Source: Escherichia coli (GTDB lineage: Bacteria > Pseudomonadota > Gammaproteobacteria > Enterobacterales > Enterobacteriaceae). From it: a stretch of DNA of 64,000 nucleotides. Below, piece by piece: positions 4,972 through 63,912 of this stretch (within the stretch, counting starts at the first letter, position 1; each line of letters starts with the position of its first letter). The notes beneath the pieces were generated by a model that was given only the letters and a program-made list of their open reading frames with translations, ran no database searches and had not been told where the DNA came from. The stretch lies in assembly GCF_001677475.2 (NCBI RefSeq), contig NZ_CP015229.1; one strand, given 5' to 3'. Both the position numbers and the translations under genes were made by a program.

Positions 4972-5120
4972 TGCGCACCCTTATAAATTTAATGACTTTC
5001 TAATAGTCATCATATTTATAACGGACGTGAAAGGAGTAACGGTTTTATATACCGTTTGGTGATTTGGAAGTTGAAAAGGGAATAAGAACTTGGTTCAACA
5101 GGCGTAATTGTTGCAGTCAG
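4972..5120 (-). promoter_or_regulatory. cysP promoter region (CysB-activated in E. coli)
   Basis: AT-rich region directly upstream of the first operon gene; assignment is from established cys-regulon knowledge, individual sites not mapped here. Confidence 0.4.
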
Positions 5121-5274
5121 TTTGGACACGGACAGCGCGGAGAAACCGGAGCGTACACATAGTACGTGAGGATTTCGAGCACTGCCCGGGGCAAAAATGA
5201 CAAATAAAATAGCCTGGTGAACTTAGTTCAAGACGAAATCCTCCCCACACATGCAGGGAGGAAACAGAGGTGAA

Positions 5275-9543: not shown

Positions 9544-9633
9544 CATGAAACGGACAATGCTCTATCTTTCTCTGCTGGCTGTTAGCTGCAGCGTCAGCGC
9601 CGCAAAATACCCTGTTCTGACAGAAGGTAGTTG
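9544..9633 (+). pseudogene. 29-codon ORF with signal-peptide-like N-terminus; possible remnant of yfeW (PBP4B)
   Basis: MKRTMLYLSLLAVSCSVSAAKYPVLTEGS then stop, in the slot where K-12 (from memory) carries yfeW; only 179 bp separate murP and yfeX. Confidence 0.3.
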
Positions 9634-9663
9634 ATCAAGTATATGCGGCGTTAAAGCAGTAAT

Positions 9664-54314: not shown

Positions 54315-54355
54315 ATATGAAATGCAATGTTTCATATCATTTTCAAGGAGCCGAC

Positions 54356-54973
54356 ATGAACCGCTTTGTGGTGGCCGAACCACTGTGGTGTACAGGATGT
54401 AATACCTGTCTCGCTGCCTGTTCGGACGTGCATAAAACGCAAGGTTTACAGCAACACCCGCGCCTGGCCCTGGCGAAGACGTCAACACTCACTGCCCCTG
54501 TCGTGTGTCATCACTGTGAGGAAGCCCCTTGCCTGCAGGTCTGCCCGGTCAATGCCATCTCCCAGAGGGATGATGCGATCCAACTCAACGAAAGCCTCTG
54601 TATTGGCTGCAAGCTTTGCGCCGTGGTCTGCCCATTTGGCGCAATCAGCGCTTCAGGAAGCCGTCCGGTGAATGCCCCTGCGCAATATGTTTTTCAGGCT
54701 GACGGCTCACTCAAAGACGGCGAAGAAAACGCGCCGACCCAACATGCTTTGCTGCGCTGGGAACCGGGTGTCCAGACCGTCGCGGTGAAATGCGACCTGT
54801 GTGATTTCTTGCCAGAAGGTCCGGCCTGCGTTCGCGCTTGCCCGAATCATGCGTTACGGCTGATCACCGACGATAGCCTGCAACGTCAGATGAAAGAAAA
54901 ACAGCGCCTTGCCGCAAGCTGGTTTGCCAATGGCGGGGAGGATCCCCTTTCCCTCACTCAGGAGCAACGCTAA
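54356..54973 (+). CDS. hyfA: Hydrogenase 4 ferredoxin-type subunit (4Fe-4S)
   Basis: 205 aa from MNRFVVAEPLWCTGCNTCLAAC with several Cys clusters; matches HyfA. Confidence 0.92.
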   Translation: MNRFVVAEPLWCTGCNTCLAACSDVHKTQGLQQHPRLALAKTSTLTAPVVCHHCEEAPCLQVCPVNAISQRDDAIQLNESLCIGCKLCAVVCPFGAISASGSRPVNAPAQYVFQADGSLKDGEENAPTQHALLRWEPGVQTVAVKCDLCDFLPEGPACVRACPNHALRLITDDSLQRQMKEKQRLAASWFANGGEDPLSLTQEQR

Positions 54974-56991
54974 TGGATGCCCTGCAATTATTAACCTGGT
55001 CGCTGATCCTCTATCTGTTTGCCAGTCTGGCTTCGCTGTTTTTACTCGGTCTGGACAGACTGGCTATTAAGCTTTCCGGCATCACATCGCTGGTGGGTGG
55101 CGTGATTGGCATCATCAGCGGAATTACGCAATTACATGCAGGCGTAACTTTAGTCGCCCGTTTTGCCACGCCTTTTGACTTTGCCGATTTAACCCTGCGA
55201 ATGGATAGCCTCTCGGCATTTATGGTGCTGGTTATCTCCTTGCTGGTGGTGGTTTGTTCGCTCTATTCATTGACTTATATGCGCGAATACGAGGGTAAAG
55301 GCGCGGCGGCGATGGGCTTCTTTATGAATCTTTTCATCGCATCGATGGTTGCCCTGCTGGTGATGGACAACGCTTTTTGGTTCATCGTGCTGTTTGAAAT
55401 GATGTCGCTGTCTTCCTGGTTTTTGGTCATTGCCAGGCAGGATAAAACGTCGATCAACGCTGGCATGCTCTACTTTTTTATCGCCCACGCCGGATCGGTG
55501 CTGATTATGATCGCTTTCTTGCTGATGGGGCGCGAAAGCGGCAGCCTCGATTTTGCCAGTTTCCGCACGCTTTCACTTTCTCCGGGGCTGGCGTCGGCGG
55601 TGTTCCTGCTGGCCTTTTTCGGTTTTGGCGCGAAAGCCGGGATGATGCCGTTGCACAGCTGGTTGCCACGCGCTCACCCTGCCGCACCATCGCACGCTTC
55701 GGCGTTGATGTCTGGCGTAATGGTCAAAATCGGTATTTTCGGCATCCTGAAAGTAGCGATGGATCTGCTGGCGCAAACGGGTTTGCCGCTGTGGTGGGGC
55801 ATTCTGGTGATGGCGATCGGCGCAATCTCCGCGCTCCTGGGCGTGCTGTATGCGCTGGCGGAACAGGATATCAAACGGCTGCTGGCCTGGAGTACCGTCG
55901 AAAACGTCGGCATTATTTTGCTGGCGGTCGGTGTGGCGATGGTCGGTCTGTCACTGCACGACCCGCTGCTCACCGTTGTTGGACTGCTCGGCGCGCTGTT
56001 TCATCTGCTCAACCATGCGCTGTTCAAAGGGCTGCTGTTTCTCGGCGCGGGTGCGATTATTTCGCGTTTGCATACCCACGACATGGAAAAAATGGGGGCA
56101 CTGGCGAAACGGATGCCGTGGACAGCCGCAGCATGCCTGATTGGTTGCCTCGCGATATCAGCCATTCCTCCGCTGAATGGTTTTATCAGCGAATGGTACA
56201 CCTGGCAGTCGCTGTTCTCACTAAGTCGTGTGGAAGCCGTAGCGCTACAACTTGCGGGTCCTATTGCTATGGTGATGCTGGCAGTCACTGGTGGGCTGGC
56301 AGTAATGTGCTTCGTCAAAATGTACGGTATTACTTTCTGTGGAGCGCCGCGCAGTACACACGCTGAAGAGGCACAGGAAGTGCCAAATACGATGATCGTC
56401 GCCATGCTACTGCTCGCGGCACTCTGCGTATTCATTGCGCTTAGTGCCAGTTGGCTGGCACCGAAGATAATGCACATTGCCCATGCGTTTACCAATACCC
56501 CTCCCGTCACTGTCGCCAGCGGAATAGCACTTGTACCCGGCACGTTTCATACACGGGTCACTCCCTCATTACTGTTGCTGTTACTACTGGCGATGCCTTT
56601 GCTGCCTGGCCTTTACTGGCTGTGGTGTCGTTCGCGCCGCGCAGCGTTTCGTCGCACAGGAGATGCCTGGGCATGCGGCTACGGCTGGGATAATGCGATG
56701 GCCCCGTCAGGCAATGGCGTGATGCAGCCGCTGCGTGTGGTCTTTTATGCGCTATTTCGTCTACGACAACAGCTCGACCCTACGCTGAGGCTGAACAAAG
56801 GTCTTGCGCACGTCACCGCCAGGGCTCAGAGCACAGAACCCTTCTGGGATGAGCGGGTGATCCGCCCCATCGTGAGCGCCACCCAACGGCTGGCCAAAGA
56901 AATACAGCATCTGCAAAGCGGCGACTTTCGTCTCTATTGCCTGTATGTGGTCGCCGCACTGGTTGTGCTGCTAATCGCTATTGCCGTCTAA
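54973..56991 (+). CDS. hyfB: Hydrogenase 4 membrane subunit (NuoL/antiporter-like)
   Basis: 672 aa polytopic membrane protein; matches HyfB; ATG overlaps the hyfA stop (taATG). Confidence 0.94.
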   Translation: MDALQLLTWSLILYLFASLASLFLLGLDRLAIKLSGITSLVGGVIGIISGITQLHAGVTLVARFATPFDFADLTLRMDSLSAFMVLVISLLVVVCSLYSLTYMREYEGKGAAAMGFFMNLFIASMVALLVMDNAFWFIVLFEMMSLSSWFLVIARQDKTSINAGMLYFFIAHAGSVLIMIAFLLMGRESGSLDFASFRTLSLSPGLASAVFLLAFFGFGAKAGMMPLHSWLPRAHPAAPSHASALMSGVMVKIGIFGILKVAMDLLAQTGLPLWWGILVMAIGAISALLGVLYALAEQDIKRLLAWSTVENVGIILLAVGVAMVGLSLHDPLLTVVGLLGALFHLLNHALFKGLLFLGAGAIISRLHTHDMEKMGALAKRMPWTAAACLIGCLAISAIPPLNGFISEWYTWQSLFSLSRVEAVALQLAGPIAMVMLAVTGGLAVMCFVKMYGITFCGAPRSTHAEEAQEVPNTMIVAMLLLAALCVFIALSASWLAPKIMHIAHAFTNTPPVTVASGIALVPGTFHTRVTPSLLLLLLLAMPLLPGLYWLWCRSRRAAFRRTGDAWACGYGWDNAMAPSGNGVMQPLRVVFYALFRLRQQLDPTLRLNKGLAHVTARAQSTEPFWDERVIRPIVSATQRLAKEIQHLQSGDFRLYCLYVVAALVVLLIAIAV

Positions 56992-57001
56992 GGAAATCAC
57001 C

Positions 57002-57949
57002 ATGAGACAAACTCTTTGCGACGGATATCTGGTCATTTTTGCGTTAGCACAGGCCGTGATTCTGCTGGTGCTAACCCCGCTTTTTACGGGTATTTCCCGG
57101 CAGATACGCGCGCGAATGCACTCCCGTCGCGGACCGGGGATCTGGCAGGATTATCGCGATATCCACAAACTGTTTAAACGCCAGGAAGTTGCGCCAACAT
57201 CTTCAGGTCTGATGTTCCGCCTGATGCCGTGGGTATTAATCAGCAGCATGCTGGTGCTGGCGATGGCCCTACCACTATTTATTACTGTTTCCCCTTTTGC
57301 GGGCGGCGGCGATCTGATCACCCTTATCTATCTTCTTGCCCTGTTTCGTTTTTTCTTTGCTCTTTCCGGGCTGGATACCGGAAGCCCGTTTGCGGGAGTC
57401 GGTGCCAGTCGCGAGTTGACGCTCGGCATTCTGGTCGAACCCATGCTCATTCTCTCACTGCTGGTATTGGCGCTGATAGCGGATTCCACGCATATCGAGA
57501 TGATCAGCAAGACGCTGGCGACGGGCTGGAACTCGCCGCTAACCACCGTACTGGCGTTACTGGCCTGTGGTTTTGCCTGCTTCATTGAGATGGGAAAAAT
57601 TCCCTTTGATGTTGCTGAAGCAGAACAGGAATTACAGGAAGGCCCGCTGACCGAATATTCCGGTGCCGGGCTGGCGTTGGCGAAATGGGGGCTGGGGCTG
57701 AAACAGGTCGTGATGGCAGCACTGTTTGTGGCCCTGTTTCTGCCCTTTGGGCGCGCGCAAGAACTTTCTCTCGCCTGCCTGCTGACTTCTCTTGTCGTTA
57801 CGCTGCTCAAGGTTTTGCTGATTTTTGTTCTGGCCTCTATCGCAGAAAACACGCTGGCACGCGGGCGTTTTTTACTCATTCACCATGTGACCTGGCTTGG
57901 CTTCAGCCTTGCTGCGCTTGCCTGGGTCTTCTGGTTAACCGGTCTGTAA
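57002..57949 (+). CDS. hyfC: Hydrogenase 4 membrane subunit (NuoH-like)
   Basis: 315 aa from MRQTLCDGYLVIFALAQ; matches HyfC. Confidence 0.92.
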   Translation: MRQTLCDGYLVIFALAQAVILLVLTPLFTGISRQIRARMHSRRGPGIWQDYRDIHKLFKRQEVAPTSSGLMFRLMPWVLISSMLVLAMALPLFITVSPFAGGGDLITLIYLLALFRFFFALSGLDTGSPFAGVGASRELTLGILVEPMLILSLLVLALIADSTHIEMISKTLATGWNSPLTTVLALLACGFACFIEMGKIPFDVAEAEQELQEGPLTEYSGAGLALAKWGLGLKQVVMAALFVALFLPFGRAQELSLACLLTSLVVTLLKVLLIFVLASIAENTLARGRFLLIHHVTWLGFSLAALAWVFWLTGL

Positions 57950-57965
57950 GGAGCACTGACGGAAT

Positions 57966-59405
57966 ATGGAAAATCTTGCTCTGACGACGTTATTGCTGCC
58001 TTTTATCGGCGCACTGGTCGTTTCGTTTTCGCCACAACGTCGGGCCGCCGAATGGGGGATTTTGTTCGCCGCGCTGACCACGCTGTGCATGTTGTCGCTG
58101 ATCTCCGCGTTTTATCAGGCCGATAAAGTTGCCGTCACGTTGACGTTGGTCAACGTGGGGGATGTGGCGTTGTTTGGCCTGGTCATTGATCGCGTGAGTA
58201 CGCTGATTCTGTTTGTGGTGGTGTTCCTCGGTTTGCTGGTCACGATCTACTCCACGGGTTATCTGACGGATAAAAATCGCGAACACCCGCATAACGGCAC
58301 GAATCGTTATTACGCATTTTTGCTGGTGTTTATCGGCGCGATGGCGGGACTGGTACTCTCCTCGACGCTGCTCGGTCAGTTGTTGTTTTTTGAAATTACG
58401 GGCGGCTGCTCCTGGGCGTTGATCAGTTATTACCAGAGCGATAAAGCGCAGCGTTCAGCACTAAAAGCGTTGCTTATCACTCATATCGGTTCGTTGGGGT
58501 TGTATCTTGCCGCCGCCACGCTGTTTTTGCAGACCGGAACGTTTGCGCTCAGCGCGATGAGCGAGTTACACGGCGACGCACGCTATCTGGTTTATGGTGG
58601 CATCCTGTTTGCCGCGTGGGGGAAATCGGCCCAGCTACCGATGCAAGCGTGGCTACCGGATGCAATGGAAGCGCCAACACCGATCAGCGCCTATCTCCAC
58701 GCCGCATCGATGGTGAAAGTGGGCGTTTACATTTTTGCCCGTGCCATTATCGACGGCGGCAATATCCCGCATGTGATTGGCGGCGTTGGCATGGTTATGG
58801 CACTGGTCACCATTCTTTATGGCTTCCTGATGTATTTGCCACAGCAGGATATGAAGCGGTTGCTGGCCTGGTCGACCATCACTCAACTTGGCTGGATGTT
58901 CTTCGGCTTGTCGCTCTCCATCTTCGGCTCGCGGCTGGCGCTGGAGGGTAGCATCGCCTACATCGTCAACCACGCATTCGCTAAAAGCCTGTTTTTCCTT
59001 GTAGCAGGTGCACTGAGTTACAGCTGCGGCACGCGCTTGTTGCCGCGTCTGCGTGGCGTATTGCACACCCTGCCATTGCCTGGCGTGGGTTTCTGCGTGG
59101 CAGCGCTGGCAATTACCGGCGTGCCGCCGTTCAACGGCTTCTTCAGTAAATTCCCGCTGTTTGCTGCCGGTTTTGCGTTGTCAGTGGAGTACTGGATCCT
59201 GCTGCCCGCCATGATTCTGCTGATGACTGAATCGGTCGCTAGTTTCGCCTGGTTTATTCGCTGGTTTGGTCGCGTCGTGCCTGGCAAACCTAGCGAGGCC
59301 GTCGCCGATGCCACACCGCTACCAGGGTCAATGCGCCTGGTGTTGATTGTACTGATTGTGATGTCGCTGATTTCCAGCGTAATCGCCGCGACCTGGTTGC
59401 AGTAA
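57966..59405 (+). CDS. hyfD: Hydrogenase 4 membrane subunit (NuoM/antiporter-like)
   Basis: 479 aa matching HyfD. Confidence 0.93.
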   Translation: MENLALTTLLLPFIGALVVSFSPQRRAAEWGILFAALTTLCMLSLISAFYQADKVAVTLTLVNVGDVALFGLVIDRVSTLILFVVVFLGLLVTIYSTGYLTDKNREHPHNGTNRYYAFLLVFIGAMAGLVLSSTLLGQLLFFEITGGCSWALISYYQSDKAQRSALKALLITHIGSLGLYLAAATLFLQTGTFALSAMSELHGDARYLVYGGILFAAWGKSAQLPMQAWLPDAMEAPTPISAYLHAASMVKVGVYIFARAIIDGGNIPHVIGGVGMVMALVTILYGFLMYLPQQDMKRLLAWSTITQLGWMFFGLSLSIFGSRLALEGSIAYIVNHAFAKSLFFLVAGALSYSCGTRLLPRLRGVLHTLPLPGVGFCVAALAITGVPPFNGFFSKFPLFAAGFALSVEYWILLPAMILLMTESVASFAWFIRWFGRVVPGKPSEAVADATPLPGSMRLVLIVLIVMSLISSVIAATWLQ

Positions 59406-59416
59406 GGAGATGATGA

Positions 59417-60067
59417 ATGACCGGTTCTATGATCGTAAATAATCTGGCGGGACTGATGATGCTGACATCACTGTTTGTGATTAGCGTCAAAAGCTATCGC
59501 CTGTCATGCGGATTTTACGCCTGCCAGTCACTGGTGCTGGTGTCTATTTTCGCCACCCTCTCGTGCCTGTTCGCCGCAGAGCAACTGCTGATCTGGTCCG
59601 CCAGCGCCTTTATCACCAAAGTGCTGCTGGTACCGTTAATCATGACTTACGCTGCACGAAATATTCCCCAGAACATCCCGGAAAAAGCGTTATTCGGTCC
59701 GGCAATGATGGCACTGCTCGCGGCGTTAATTGTCCTGCTTTGCGCATTTGTCGTTCAGCCCGTGAAGCTACCGATGGCTACCGGGCTGAAACCGGCGCTG
59801 GCGGTGGCGTTAGGTCATTTTCTGCTTGGCCTGCTGTGCATTGTCAGCCAGCGCAATATCCTGCGGCAAATTTTTGGTTACTGCCTGATGGAAAACGGCT
59901 CCCATCTGGTGCTGGCGCTTCTAGCCTGGCGTGCACCGGAACTGGTGGAAATTGGTATCGCTACCGACGCCATCTTCGCCGTCATTGTAATGGTGTTACT
60001 GGCAAGAAAAATATGGCGTACCCACGGCACGCTGGACGTGAACAACTTGACCGCGCTGAAGGGATAA
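59417..60067 (+). CDS. hyfE: Hydrogenase 4 membrane subunit
   Basis: 216 aa matching HyfE. Confidence 0.92.
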
Positions 60068-60071
60068 TGAG

Positions 60072-61652
60072 ATGAGTTATTCTGTGATGTTCGCTTTACT
60101 CCTGCTCACGCCGCTACTTTTTTCGCTGCTCTGTTTTGCCTGCCGGAAACGGGGACACTCTGCGACTCGCACGGTGACAGTACTACATGGCTTAGGGATC
60201 ACACTGCTGCTGATTCTGGCACTGTGGGTGGTCCAAACCGCCGCTGATGCGGGAGAAATATTCGCTGCGGGACTGTGGCTTCACATTGATGGCCTGGGCG
60301 GTTTGTTCCTCGCCATTCTTGGTGTGATTGGCTTTCTCACCGGTGTTTACTCGATTGGCTACATGCGTCATGAAGTGGCACACGGCGAGCTTTCACCCGT
60401 TACGCTGTGCGATTACTACGGTTTCTTCCATCTGTTTTTGTTCACCATGCTGCTGGTTGTTACCAGCAATAACCTGATTGTGATGTGGGCGGCAATCGAA
60501 GCCACCACCTTAAGCTCGGCGTTTCTGGTAGGCATTTACGGTCAGCGTTCATCGCTGGAAGCTGCATGGAAGTACATCATTATTTGTACTGTTGGTGTCG
60601 CTTTTGGTCTGTTCGGTACCGTGCTGGTATACGCCAACGCCGCCAGCGTTATGCCGCAGGCAGAAATGGCGATATTCTGGAGCGAGGTTCTTAAGCAATC
60701 GTCCTTGCTTGACCCAACATTAATGCTGTTGGCCTTTGTGTTTGTGCTAATTGGCTTTGGCACCAAAACCGGGCTTTTTCCCATGCACGCCTGGCTGCCG
60801 GATGCTCACAGTGAAGCGCCGAGTCCGGTCAGCGCCCTGCTCTCCGCCGTATTGCTGAACTGCGCGCTGTTGGTGCTTATTCGCTATTACATCATTATTT
60901 GCCAGGCCATCGGCAGCGATTTCCCCAACCGGTTGTTGCTCATCTTCGGCATGTTGTCGGTTGCCGTGGCGGCATTTTTCATTCTGGTACAGCGGGACAT
61001 TAAGCGTCTGCTGGCGTACTCCAGCGTGGAGAACATGGGACTGGTCGCGGTGGCGATAGGCATTGGCGGGCCGCTGGGAATTTTTGCCGCGCTGCTGCAC
61101 ACCTTAAACCACAGTCTGGCAAAAACGCTGTTGTTCTGCGGTTCCGGCAATGTACTGCTCAAGTACGGCACGCGCGATCTCAACGTCGTCTGTGGGATGC
61201 TCAAAATCATGCCATTTACCGCCGTGTTGTTTGGCGGCGGTGCGCTGGCGCTGGCCGGGATGCCGCCCTTCAACATTTTTCTTAGCGAATTTATGACCGT
61301 TACCGCCGGACTGGCGCGTAATCATCTGCTGCTTATCGTCCTGCTGTTATTGCTGTTAACGCTGGTGCTGGCGGGCCTGGTACGGATGGCTGCGCGGGTG
61401 TTAATGGCGAAACCGCCGCAGGCCGTTAACCGGGGTGAACTTGGCTGGTTGACCACCTCGCCAATGGTGATTCTGCTGGTCATGATGCTGGCGATGGGAA
61501 CGCATATTCCACAACCTGTCATCAGGATCCTGGCTGGCGCTTCCACTATAGTCCTCTCAGGGACGCACGACCTGCCTGCACAACGTAGCACCTGGCATGA
61601 TTTTTTGCCTTCAGGCACCGCATCTGTTTCGGAGAAACACAGTGAACGTTAA
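60072..61652 (+). CDS. hyfF: Hydrogenase 4 membrane subunit (NuoN/antiporter-like)
   Basis: 526 aa matching HyfF. Confidence 0.93.
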
Positions 61653-63357
61653 TTCATCGTCAAATCGTGGCGAAGCGATTCTCGCCGCCCTGAAAACGCA
61701 GTTCCCCGGCGCGGTGCTGGATGAAGAGCGACAAACGCCTGAACAGGTCACCATTACGGTGAAAATCAATCTGCTGCCTGACGTTGTGCATTATCTTTAT
61801 TATCAACATGATGGCTGGCTTCCAGTCCTGTTTGGCAACGACGAGCGGACACTTAACGGTCATTACGCAGTTTATTATGCCCTTTCTATGGAAGGGGCCG
61901 AAAAATGCTGGATCGTGGTGAAGGCACTGGTCGATGCCGACAGTCGGGAGTTTCCGTCAGTCACACCGCGCGTCCCTGCCGCGGTCTGGGGCGAGCGAGA
62001 AATTCGCGATATGTACGGGCTGATTCCGGTTGGCCTGCCGGATCAGCGTCGGCTGGTGTTGCCCGATGACTGGCCGGAAGATATGCATCCGCTGCGCAAA
62101 GACGCGATGGATTATCGACTGCGCCCTGAACCGACGACTGATACCGAAACGTATCCGTTTATCAACGAGGGCAACAGCGATGCGCGGGTGATCCCTGTCG
62201 GCCCGCTGCATATCACCTCCGATGAACCAGGTCACTTCCGCTTGTTTGTGGATGGCGAGCAAATTGTCGATGCTGATTACCGCCTGTTTTATGTCCATCG
62301 CGGCATGGAGAAACTGGCAGAAACGCGGATGGGCTACAACGAAGTGACCTTCTTGTCGGACCGCGTGTGTGGGATTTGCGGTTTTGCCCACAGTGTGGCC
62401 TATACCAACTCGGTTGAAAATGCACTGGGGATTGAGGTGCCGCAACGAGCGCATACTATTCGCTCGATTCTGCTGGAAGTCGAACGGCTGCATAGTCATT
62501 TGCTCAACCTTGGCCTCTCCTGCCATTTTGTTGGTTTTGATACCGGCTTTATGCAATTTTTCCGCGTGCGGGAAAAGTCGATGACGATGGCGGAATTGCT
62601 GACCGGGTCGCGTAAAACCTACGGTCTGAATCTGATTGGTGGTGTTCGCCGCGATATTCTCAAAGAGCAACGTCTGCAAACGCTGAAACTGGTGCACGAG
62701 ATGCGCGCCGACGTGTCGGAGCTGGTAGAGATGCTGCTTGCCACGCCGAATATGGAACAACGCACTCAGGGCATTGGCATTCTCGACCGACAAATCGCCC
62801 GTGATTATAGCCCCGTAGGGCCGCTGATCCGCGGCAGTGGCTTTGCCCGTGATTTGCGCTTTGATCACCCCTACGCCGACTACGGCAATATTCCAAAAAC
62901 GCTGTTTACCTTTACCGGCGGCGATGTCTTCTCCCGCGTGATGGTCCGTGTCAAAGAGACGTTTGATTCGCTGGCAATGCTGGAATTTGCCCTCGACAAC
63001 ATGCCAGATACCCCACTGCTGACCGAAGGCTTTAGCTATAAACCTCACGCATTCGCGCTGGGCTTTGTTGAAGCGCCACGTGGTGAAGACGTGCACTGGA
63101 GCATGCTCGGTGATAACCAAAAATTGTTCCGCTGGCGCTGTCGTGCCGCCACCTACGCCAACTGGCCAGTGCTACGTTACATGCTGCGCGGCAATACCGT
63201 TTCTGACGCACCGCTGATTATCGGTAGCCTTGATCCCTGCTACTCCTGTACCGACCGTGTGACGCTGGTTGATGTGCGCAAGCGCCAGTCAAAAACCGTG
63301 CCGTATAAAGAGATCGAACGCTACGGCATTGATCGTAACCGTTCGCCGCTGAAGTAA
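61642..63357 (+). CDS. hyfG: Hydrogenase 4 large catalytic subunit (NuoC-NuoD fusion, NiFe); GTG start
   Basis: HycE-like sequence with C-terminal DPCxSCTDR Ni-binding motif; ggag lies 8 nt upstream of the GTG at 61642; exact start uncertain. Confidence 0.85.
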
Positions 63358-63366
63358 GGACAGAAG

Positions 63367-63912
63367 ATGCTGAAGTTACTGAAAACTATTATGCGCGCCG
63401 GAACCGCGACGGTGAAATATCCCTTCGCGCCACTGGAAGTCAGCCCAGGCTTTCGCGGGAAACCGGACCTGATGCCCAGCCAATGTATTGCCTGCGGTGC
63501 CTGCGCCTGTGCTTGTCCGGCAAATGCGCTGACTATCCAGGCCGACGACCAGCAAAATACGCGCACCTGGCAGCTCTATCTGGGGCGTTGTATTTACTGC
63601 GGACGTTGTGAAGAAGTGTGCCCGACCAGAGCCATTCAGCTTACCAATAACTTTGAACTGACCGTCACCAATAAAGCCGATCTCTATACCCGCGCGACGT
63701 TCCATCTACAACGTTGCAGCCGTTGCGAACGCCCGTTTGCCCCGCAAAAAACCGTCGCACTGGCTGCAGAACTGTTGGCACAGCAACAAAATGCACCACA
63801 AAACCGCGAAATGTTACGGGCGCAAGCGAGCGTCTGCCCGGAATGCAAACAACGCGCGACGCTGATCAACGACGACACAGATGAACCGCTGGTGGCTAAG
63901 GAGCAGCTATGA
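63367..63912 (+). CDS. hyfH: Hydrogenase 4 Fe-S subunit (NuoI-like, 2x 4Fe-4S)
   Basis: 181 aa with [12 protein letters not shown] and [12 protein letters not shown] motifs; matches HyfH. Confidence 0.93.

Follow-up and report, generated by a model that had tools for sequence, protein, structure and literature searches.

Where does translation of hyfG, which encodes the large subunit of hydrogenase 4, begin in Escherichia coli, and why does the open reading frame examined here predict a protein of 571 residues when a length of about 555 residues is given for the reference protein? To answer these questions we analysed the junction of hyfF and hyfG within a 64,000-nt stretch of E. coli DNA (hereafter the window, to which all coordinates refer; all features described at the hyf locus are on the plus strand). 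The reading of the locus that we consider highly probable from the comparative data is that of an ordinary junction between two operon genes, in which HyfG would be initiated at GTG 61642 under the direction of a GGAG element, with translational coupling to hyfF as the likeliest mode of expression. The 571-residue protein is the ancestral form and the K-12 protein an internally deleted one.

Organisation of the locus

The open reading frames hyfA to hyfH are all intact and of the expected sizes (54317–63912). They stand in the order hyfA-B-C-D-E-F-G-H, including the membrane genes hyfD, hyfE and hyfF that are specific to FHL-2, and are annotated likewise in E. coli strain 7/2 and in K-12; hyfI and the genes that follow lie beyond the end of the window. 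The coding sequence of hyfF (60072–61652, 526 aa), which is annotated at matching coordinates in both of these strains, ends with a TAA stop codon at 61650–61652. A Shine-Dalgarno sequence, GGAG, is found at 61631–61634 within the last codons of hyfF, where the initial annotation had placed it, and is separated from a GTG codon at 61642–61644 by a spacer of 7 nt (61635–61641) and not 8 nt as had been stated, a trivial difference. From this GTG, hyfG runs in the +1 frame relative to hyfF over 571 codons and a stop (61642–63357), and its overlap with hyfF is the 11 nt that had been proposed (61642–61652), as is also the case in K-12. The next gene of the operon, hyfH (63367–63912, supported by the ORF list and by annotation), begins after 9 nt past the hyfG stop. 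Between 61597 and 63357 the hyfG frame is uninterrupted, and an ATG does lie in it at 61597–61599, 15 codons 5′ of the GTG; a product of 586 aa would result from this ATG. The earlier statement that no in-frame ATG lies near the N-terminus thus holds only downstream of that position, where an ATG is next met in frame at codon 83.

Of 5426 complete E. coli genomes, 4294 contain a match to a 701-bp segment around the junction, strain 7/2 being 99.7% identical to it and K-12 derivatives about 98%. Two further differences from strain 7/2 were seen elsewhere in the window. The gene pbp4b (yfeW) is absent between murP and yfeX (approximately 9626–9663) and is present in strain 7/2, where a copy of IS200C adjoins it, and in many other E. 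coli; as the murP-yfeX junction lacking pbp4b is common to 1272 of 5426 genomes, this is a common presence/absence polymorphism. In the cysP-ucpA interval (approximately 5099–5225), about 128 bp find no equivalent in strain 7/2 when the two sequences are aligned.

The HyfG protein

The predicted protein is 99.65% identical to WP_001102312.1 of strain 7/2 and can be aligned over residues 7–571 with HycE (PDB 7z0s_E; E = 2.7 × 10−292), the large subunit of hydrogenase 3 in formate hydrogenlyase-1 (PDB 7z0s and 7z0t, chain E). A NuoC-like 30-kDa domain was recognised at residues 39–155 (PF00329, 85.3 bits against a cut-off of 22.5), followed by a catalytic domain of the NuoD/49-kDa type (PF00346, 170.4 bits; PF00374, 54 bits). 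Both CxxC pairs that are expected to hold the Ni-Fe site are present, namely an N-terminal pair of the RxCGxC type (C243 and C246) and a C-terminal pair within the motif DPCYSCTDR (C533 and C536). Residues 540–571, which follow the conserved R539 in the place of the C-terminal assembly peptide, align with the C-terminus of HycE and agree with the 32-residue C-terminal peptide described in HyfG by Finney et al. (2020). On sequence grounds, the protein can be assigned to the large subunits of group 4a [NiFe]-hydrogenases of the HycE/HyfG type, which are NuoC-NuoD fusions. HycE shares this two-domain architecture, the nickel-iron cysteine motifs and the C-terminal extension; it differs in that the start candidate of hycE-type loci is an ATG, in that its gene follows a HycD-type gene and not hyfF, and in having an N-terminus that is 3 residues shorter in the alignment.

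Position and conservation of the hyfG start codon

The start at GTG 61642 and the 11-nt overlap are already known, in that both are annotated in databases, and the comparative data presented here back them firmly. The RefSeq entries for hyfG of strain 7/2 (WP_001102312.1, 571 aa) and of a K-12 derivative (WP_001102321.1, 555 aa) use this same GTG, and so does the curated record of MG1655 (NC_000913.3), in which hyfF occupies 2606917..2608497 and hyfG 2608487..2610154 (NP_416982.1, 555 aa) with the same 11-nt overlap. The residue numbering adopted by Finney et al. (2020) for HyfG (Gly-85/Ala-86) likewise fits initiation at this codon. Within E. coli the junction hardly varies: a 45-nt sequence spanning 61618–61662 was 100% identical in 4270 of 4290 genomes, and all 29 E. 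coli hyfG alleles that were fetched begin with GTGAACGTTAAT.

For comparison across genera, one genome per species was scanned for relatives of HyfG, which yielded 80 loci, and those with a homologue of HyfF directly upstream were classed as hyf-type. The hyf-type loci belong to the Enterobacterales, Shewanella and Celerinatantimonas; among the genera represented are Citrobacter, Klebsiella, Kosakonia, Phytobacter, Trabulsiella, Yokenella, Pluralibacter, Atlantibacter, Proteus, Providencia, Pectobacterium, Brenneria, Dickeya, Serratia, Samsonia, Shewanella and Celerinatantimonas. A GTG start preceded at 5–8 nt by GGAG or AGGAG was found in all 58 hyf-type loci, the window being counted among them, and the same signal was seen in two more loci whose upstream hyfF was cut by a contig end or could not be recognised. 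In 57 of the 58 the stop codon of hyfF falls between −2 and +23 nt from the hyfG GTG; the exception is a locus of Enterobacter sp. EA-1 (L009), in which hyfF looks disrupted. The exact geometry at these 57 junctions is variable: a 4-nt GTGA overlap and a 1-nt gap were each found 17 times, a 2-nt gap and an 8-nt overlap 7 times each, an 11-nt overlap 4 times (E. coli included), a 14-nt overlap 3 times and a 23-nt overlap twice. In most hyf-type species an in-frame stop closes the hyfG frame no more than about 20 codons 5′ of the GTG, so that a distant upstream start is excluded. A stop immediately precedes the GTG in Acerihabitans, and in Celerinatantimonas the frame opens just one codon before it.

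The motif itself carries little information, since GGAG-N7-GTG was counted 6 times in the window, where shuffling of the sequence gives an expectation of 6.05; the argument for the start is thus built on conservation and not on the motif by itself. At hycE-type loci, the N-terminal in-frame start candidate is an ATG, which was called outright at three of them; at the remainder the ATG candidate has no strong Shine-Dalgarno match by the criterion used. Breaks in the hyfG alignment were observed near residue 381 in the Enterobacter sp. EA-1 locus and near residue 328 in Trabulsiella odontotermitis strain 01 (L022), which are possibly frameshifts or assembly errors.

Conservation of the first 16 residues had been offered as a test of the start, but this test proved invalid. 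The first 12 to 20 or so residues of HyfG differ both in sequence and in length between genera, as is apparent when E. coli is compared with Citrobacter (MNYSDSVNNQSIRGEA) and Trabulsiella (MSYQQYMNGLAQGDLRG). Relative to its closest relatives (Citrobacter sp. and Klebsiella indica, L003–L005), E. coli hyfG has lost 12 nt, or 4 codons, immediately after GTGAA, by which its overlap with hyfF was shortened from 23 to 11 nt. The initiation signals are conserved where the N-terminal peptide is not, and conservation of the peptide has no bearing on the position of the start. In the alignment with HycE and with annotated HyfG N-termini, which had also been suggested as a check, residue 4 of HycE aligns to residue 7 of HyfG, so that the N-terminal lengths agree, and the N-terminus of K-12 HyfG is identical to that encoded in the window.

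Initiation at any codon other than GTG 61642 is very unlikely in the light of these comparisons. No ATG other than that at 61597 lies in frame close to the N-terminus, and the frame stays open after it, but a 586-residue HyfG with a 56-nt overlap would have to be initiated with no Shine-Dalgarno-like sequence upstream, at a codon that was seen only in E. coli, a stop usually being met elsewhere within some 20 codons upstream of the GTG. The 15 additional residues would have no counterpart in HycE, and this codon is passed over both by PGAP and in the curated record of K-12; we give such a start almost no credence. Just as improbable is a start downstream of 61642, whether at GTG 61714, which is in frame and would give 547 aa, or at a non-canonical codon such as CTG 61690, which would give the 555 aa of the reference protein. 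The figure of 555 is correct for K-12 HyfG, as the NC_000913.3 record confirms, but it is wholly explained by an internal 48-bp deletion in the K-12 gene (see below). Neither downstream codon is preceded by a Shine-Dalgarno sequence, and initiation at them would drop residues that align with residues of HycE in the sequence of the solved structure. GTG 61714 also encodes the V of a PGAVL motif, a position at which all 79 homologues have V, I, M or L.

Relation between hyfF and hyfG translation

Coupling of hyfG translation to that of hyfF, which the initial annotation had suggested, is plausible and is in our view the likeliest mode of expression, given the conserved tight juxtaposition of the two genes and the absence of a promoter-like site in the region scanned (61000–62200). 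HyfG would be initiated at GTG 61642, directed by the GGAG inside the last hyfF codons, with hyfF ending 11 nt on. Ribosomes finishing HyfF may keep the initiation region of hyfG unfolded, or may re-initiate at the nearby weak GTG, and either process would link production of the catalytic subunit to that of HyfF, its partner in the membrane. The junction has the geometry of known coupled overlapping pairs, the start of hyfG lying a few nucleotides from the stop of hyfF and its ribosome-binding site inside hyfF; location on the same strand and conservation across species are further points of likeness. Such pairs commonly overlap by 4 nt (GTGA or ATGA), whereas the overlap in E. coli is of 11 nt; a 4-nt form is present in 17 other hyf loci.

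The same 61000–62200 region contained one terminator-like site, which lies inside hyfF and is at the rate expected by chance. The mRNA between 61590 and 61700 was predicted to fold with −28.7 kcal/mol (z = −0.70, not significant), and a small hairpin around GGAG was not conserved in other species. One classical mechanism of coupling, the unmasking of a sequestered ribosome-binding site, is therefore unsupported. Rfam and tRNA scans of the entire 64,000-nt window gave no matches. Programmed frameshifting or a HyfF-HyfG fusion was also considered but seems unlikely: inspection by eye of the overlap, downstream of which hyfG continues in the +1 frame, showed no obvious slippery run, and the ribosome-binding site and GTG of hyfG are conserved. 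No paper linking hyfG with ribosome profiling was found in the literature searched.

It might instead be that ribosomes load directly on GGAG and initiate at GTG 61642 independently of hyfF translation, the overlap being a matter of compact packing. With a spacer of 7 nt, the GGAG alone makes an adequate ribosome-binding site, and no mRNA structure in need of unmasking was detected, so that direct loading has some claim to be considered. We nevertheless regard it as rather unlikely, since the hyfF stop has been kept between −2 and +23 nt from the GTG at 57 of 58 loci while the flanking sequences and the length of the overlap turn over, and since the start of hyf-type genes is always the weaker GTG and never ATG, when the hycE-type candidate is an ATG. 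This difference would point to selection that favours dependent over maximal initiation. Separately, a single G-to-A change would turn the hyfG start into ATG, yet GTG is found throughout the 58 hyf-type loci and in the two in which hyfF was not recognisable; the GTG thus seems to be maintained.

A 48-bp deletion distinguishes K-12 hyfG

The initial annotation had left the start undecided on account of the 571 residues predicted against about 555 in the reference protein, but this reason falls away when the two proteins are aligned. K-12 hyfG (b2487, NP_416982.1, 555 aa) occupies the same operon position, has the same GTG, GGAG and 11-nt overlap, and is about 98% identical in DNA sequence. The N-termini of the two proteins are identical and a single gap of 16 residues is found internally, at residues 386–401; the two also differ at H50Q, T168S, T321I and H352R (window to K-12). 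The length difference therefore arises because K-12 lacks 48 bp inside hyfG. Protein and DNA alignments place the missing segment at 62797–62844; it is present in the window and deleted in K-12 and in E. coli B. It begins with a 10-bp sequence, GCCCGTGATT (62797–62806), which is repeated directly after it (62845–62854), and the loss of 48 bp between two such copies is typical of deletions that arise between short direct repeats.

The distribution of the two alleles was determined with a 128-bp probe across the indel. The full-length allele was found in 2179 of the 4294 complete E. coli genomes that carry hyfG, among them E. coli W and O157:H7 strains. In nearly all the others the probe matched in two pieces with 70% coverage, which corresponds to the deletion allele (about 49% of hyfG-bearing genomes); its carriers include MG1655 and a derivative of E. 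coli B. In other genera the 16-residue segment was present without gaps at all 80 loci, of both hyfG and hycE types, and 10 of its 16 positions were invariant in 79 sequences; HycE retains it as ARDFSNVGPMVRASGH. Since the segment has been kept at every locus from other genera, the deletion is derived and the window allele ancestral. Five fixed nucleotide differences separate 19 deletion alleles from 10 full-length ones; the deletion alleles show almost no diversity from nucleotide 600 onwards, while their 5′ third is variable, a pattern that points to one origin followed by recombination. No mention of this deletion was found in the literature searched; an earlier mention by Andrews (1997) is possible.

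Could the deletion inactivate hydrogenase 4?

The inactivity of FHL-2 in E. coli has been called a “long-standing mystery” (Lindenstrauss and Pinske, 2019), and in K-12 Hyd-4/FHL-2 activity has long gone undetected even with the operon under strong promoters. Finney et al. (2020) tried strong promoters and swaps of the HycE C-terminus in 15 constructed K-12 strains, and referred the inactivity of E. coli FHL-2 to “additional, unknown, biosynthetic problems”. We advance tentatively, as a possibility that remains in some doubt, that the in-frame 48-bp deletion of K-12-type alleles inactivates the catalytic subunit and so contributes to this lack of activity.

The GPxxRGSG core of the deleted segment is conserved in the 49-kDa, NuoD and ND7 chains of complex I in the PDB, so that the segment can be followed from HycE to mitochondrial complex I. 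In the structural study of Steinhilper et al. (2022), HycE Arg395 was placed in a proposed proton pathway leading from the Ni-Fe site (HycE R478/D529/H284/E437/R395; NDUFS2 R297). Once the 12-residue offset due to a tag is removed, R395 of HycE aligns with R397 of HyfG (codon 62830–62832), which lies inside the deleted segment. The arginine of the GPxxRxSG segment is thus present in the window allele (R397) and absent from the K-12-type allele, and the Pfam score of the 49-kDa domain falls from 170.4 bits for the full-length protein to 129.6 bits for the K-12 allele.

The pattern of substitution in the deletion alleles is suggestive of relaxed constraint. Private variants were 6 nonsynonymous and 3 synonymous among 18 deletion alleles and 9 and 25, respectively, among 10 full-length alleles (Fisher p = 0.046), counts that are small and in which the youth of the deletion haplotype would by itself inflate the nonsynonymous fraction. 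Every copy of the deletion allele carries T321I, and some sub-lineages have P185S, P196L or W508R; positions 185, 196, 321 and 508 are each invariant in 79 of 79 homologues.

Several lines of evidence stand against inactivation. As cited in a 2025 review, Mirzoyan et al. (2017) observed Hyd-4-dependent H2 in stationary-phase cells of K-12. The hyfG open reading frame is intact in 19 of 19 deletion alleles. Additional lesions flagged by PGAP in hyfF, hyfH, hyfI or hyfR were found in 4 of 8 genomes with the deletion and in 3 of 8 with the full-length allele, that is, with no difference between the two classes. The hyf operon of E. coli is poorly expressed and has no maturation protease gene of its own, which also counts against the deletion as the cause.

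The lesions themselves merit a separate remark. Many natural E. coli carry them, whichever hyfG allele they have (PGAP; L085, L088, L090, L091, L095, L098, L099, L104 and L108), and they include a 1-nt frameshift in hyfI (E. coli W and several STEC), internal stops or frameshifts in hyfR and one stop in hyfF. In parts of the species, decay of the hyf operon seems to be under way.

Whereas the question of the start codon has no wider consequence, the fact that the K-12 reference HyfG is a deletion allele could matter. If the deletion does inactivate the enzyme, strains that carry the intact 571-aa allele together with hyfA to hyfH, or K-12 strains in which the 48 bp have been restored, could make active FHL-2. 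Were the deletion the cause of the missing activity, repair of these 48 bp alone would open hydrogenase 4 of E. coli to experimental study.
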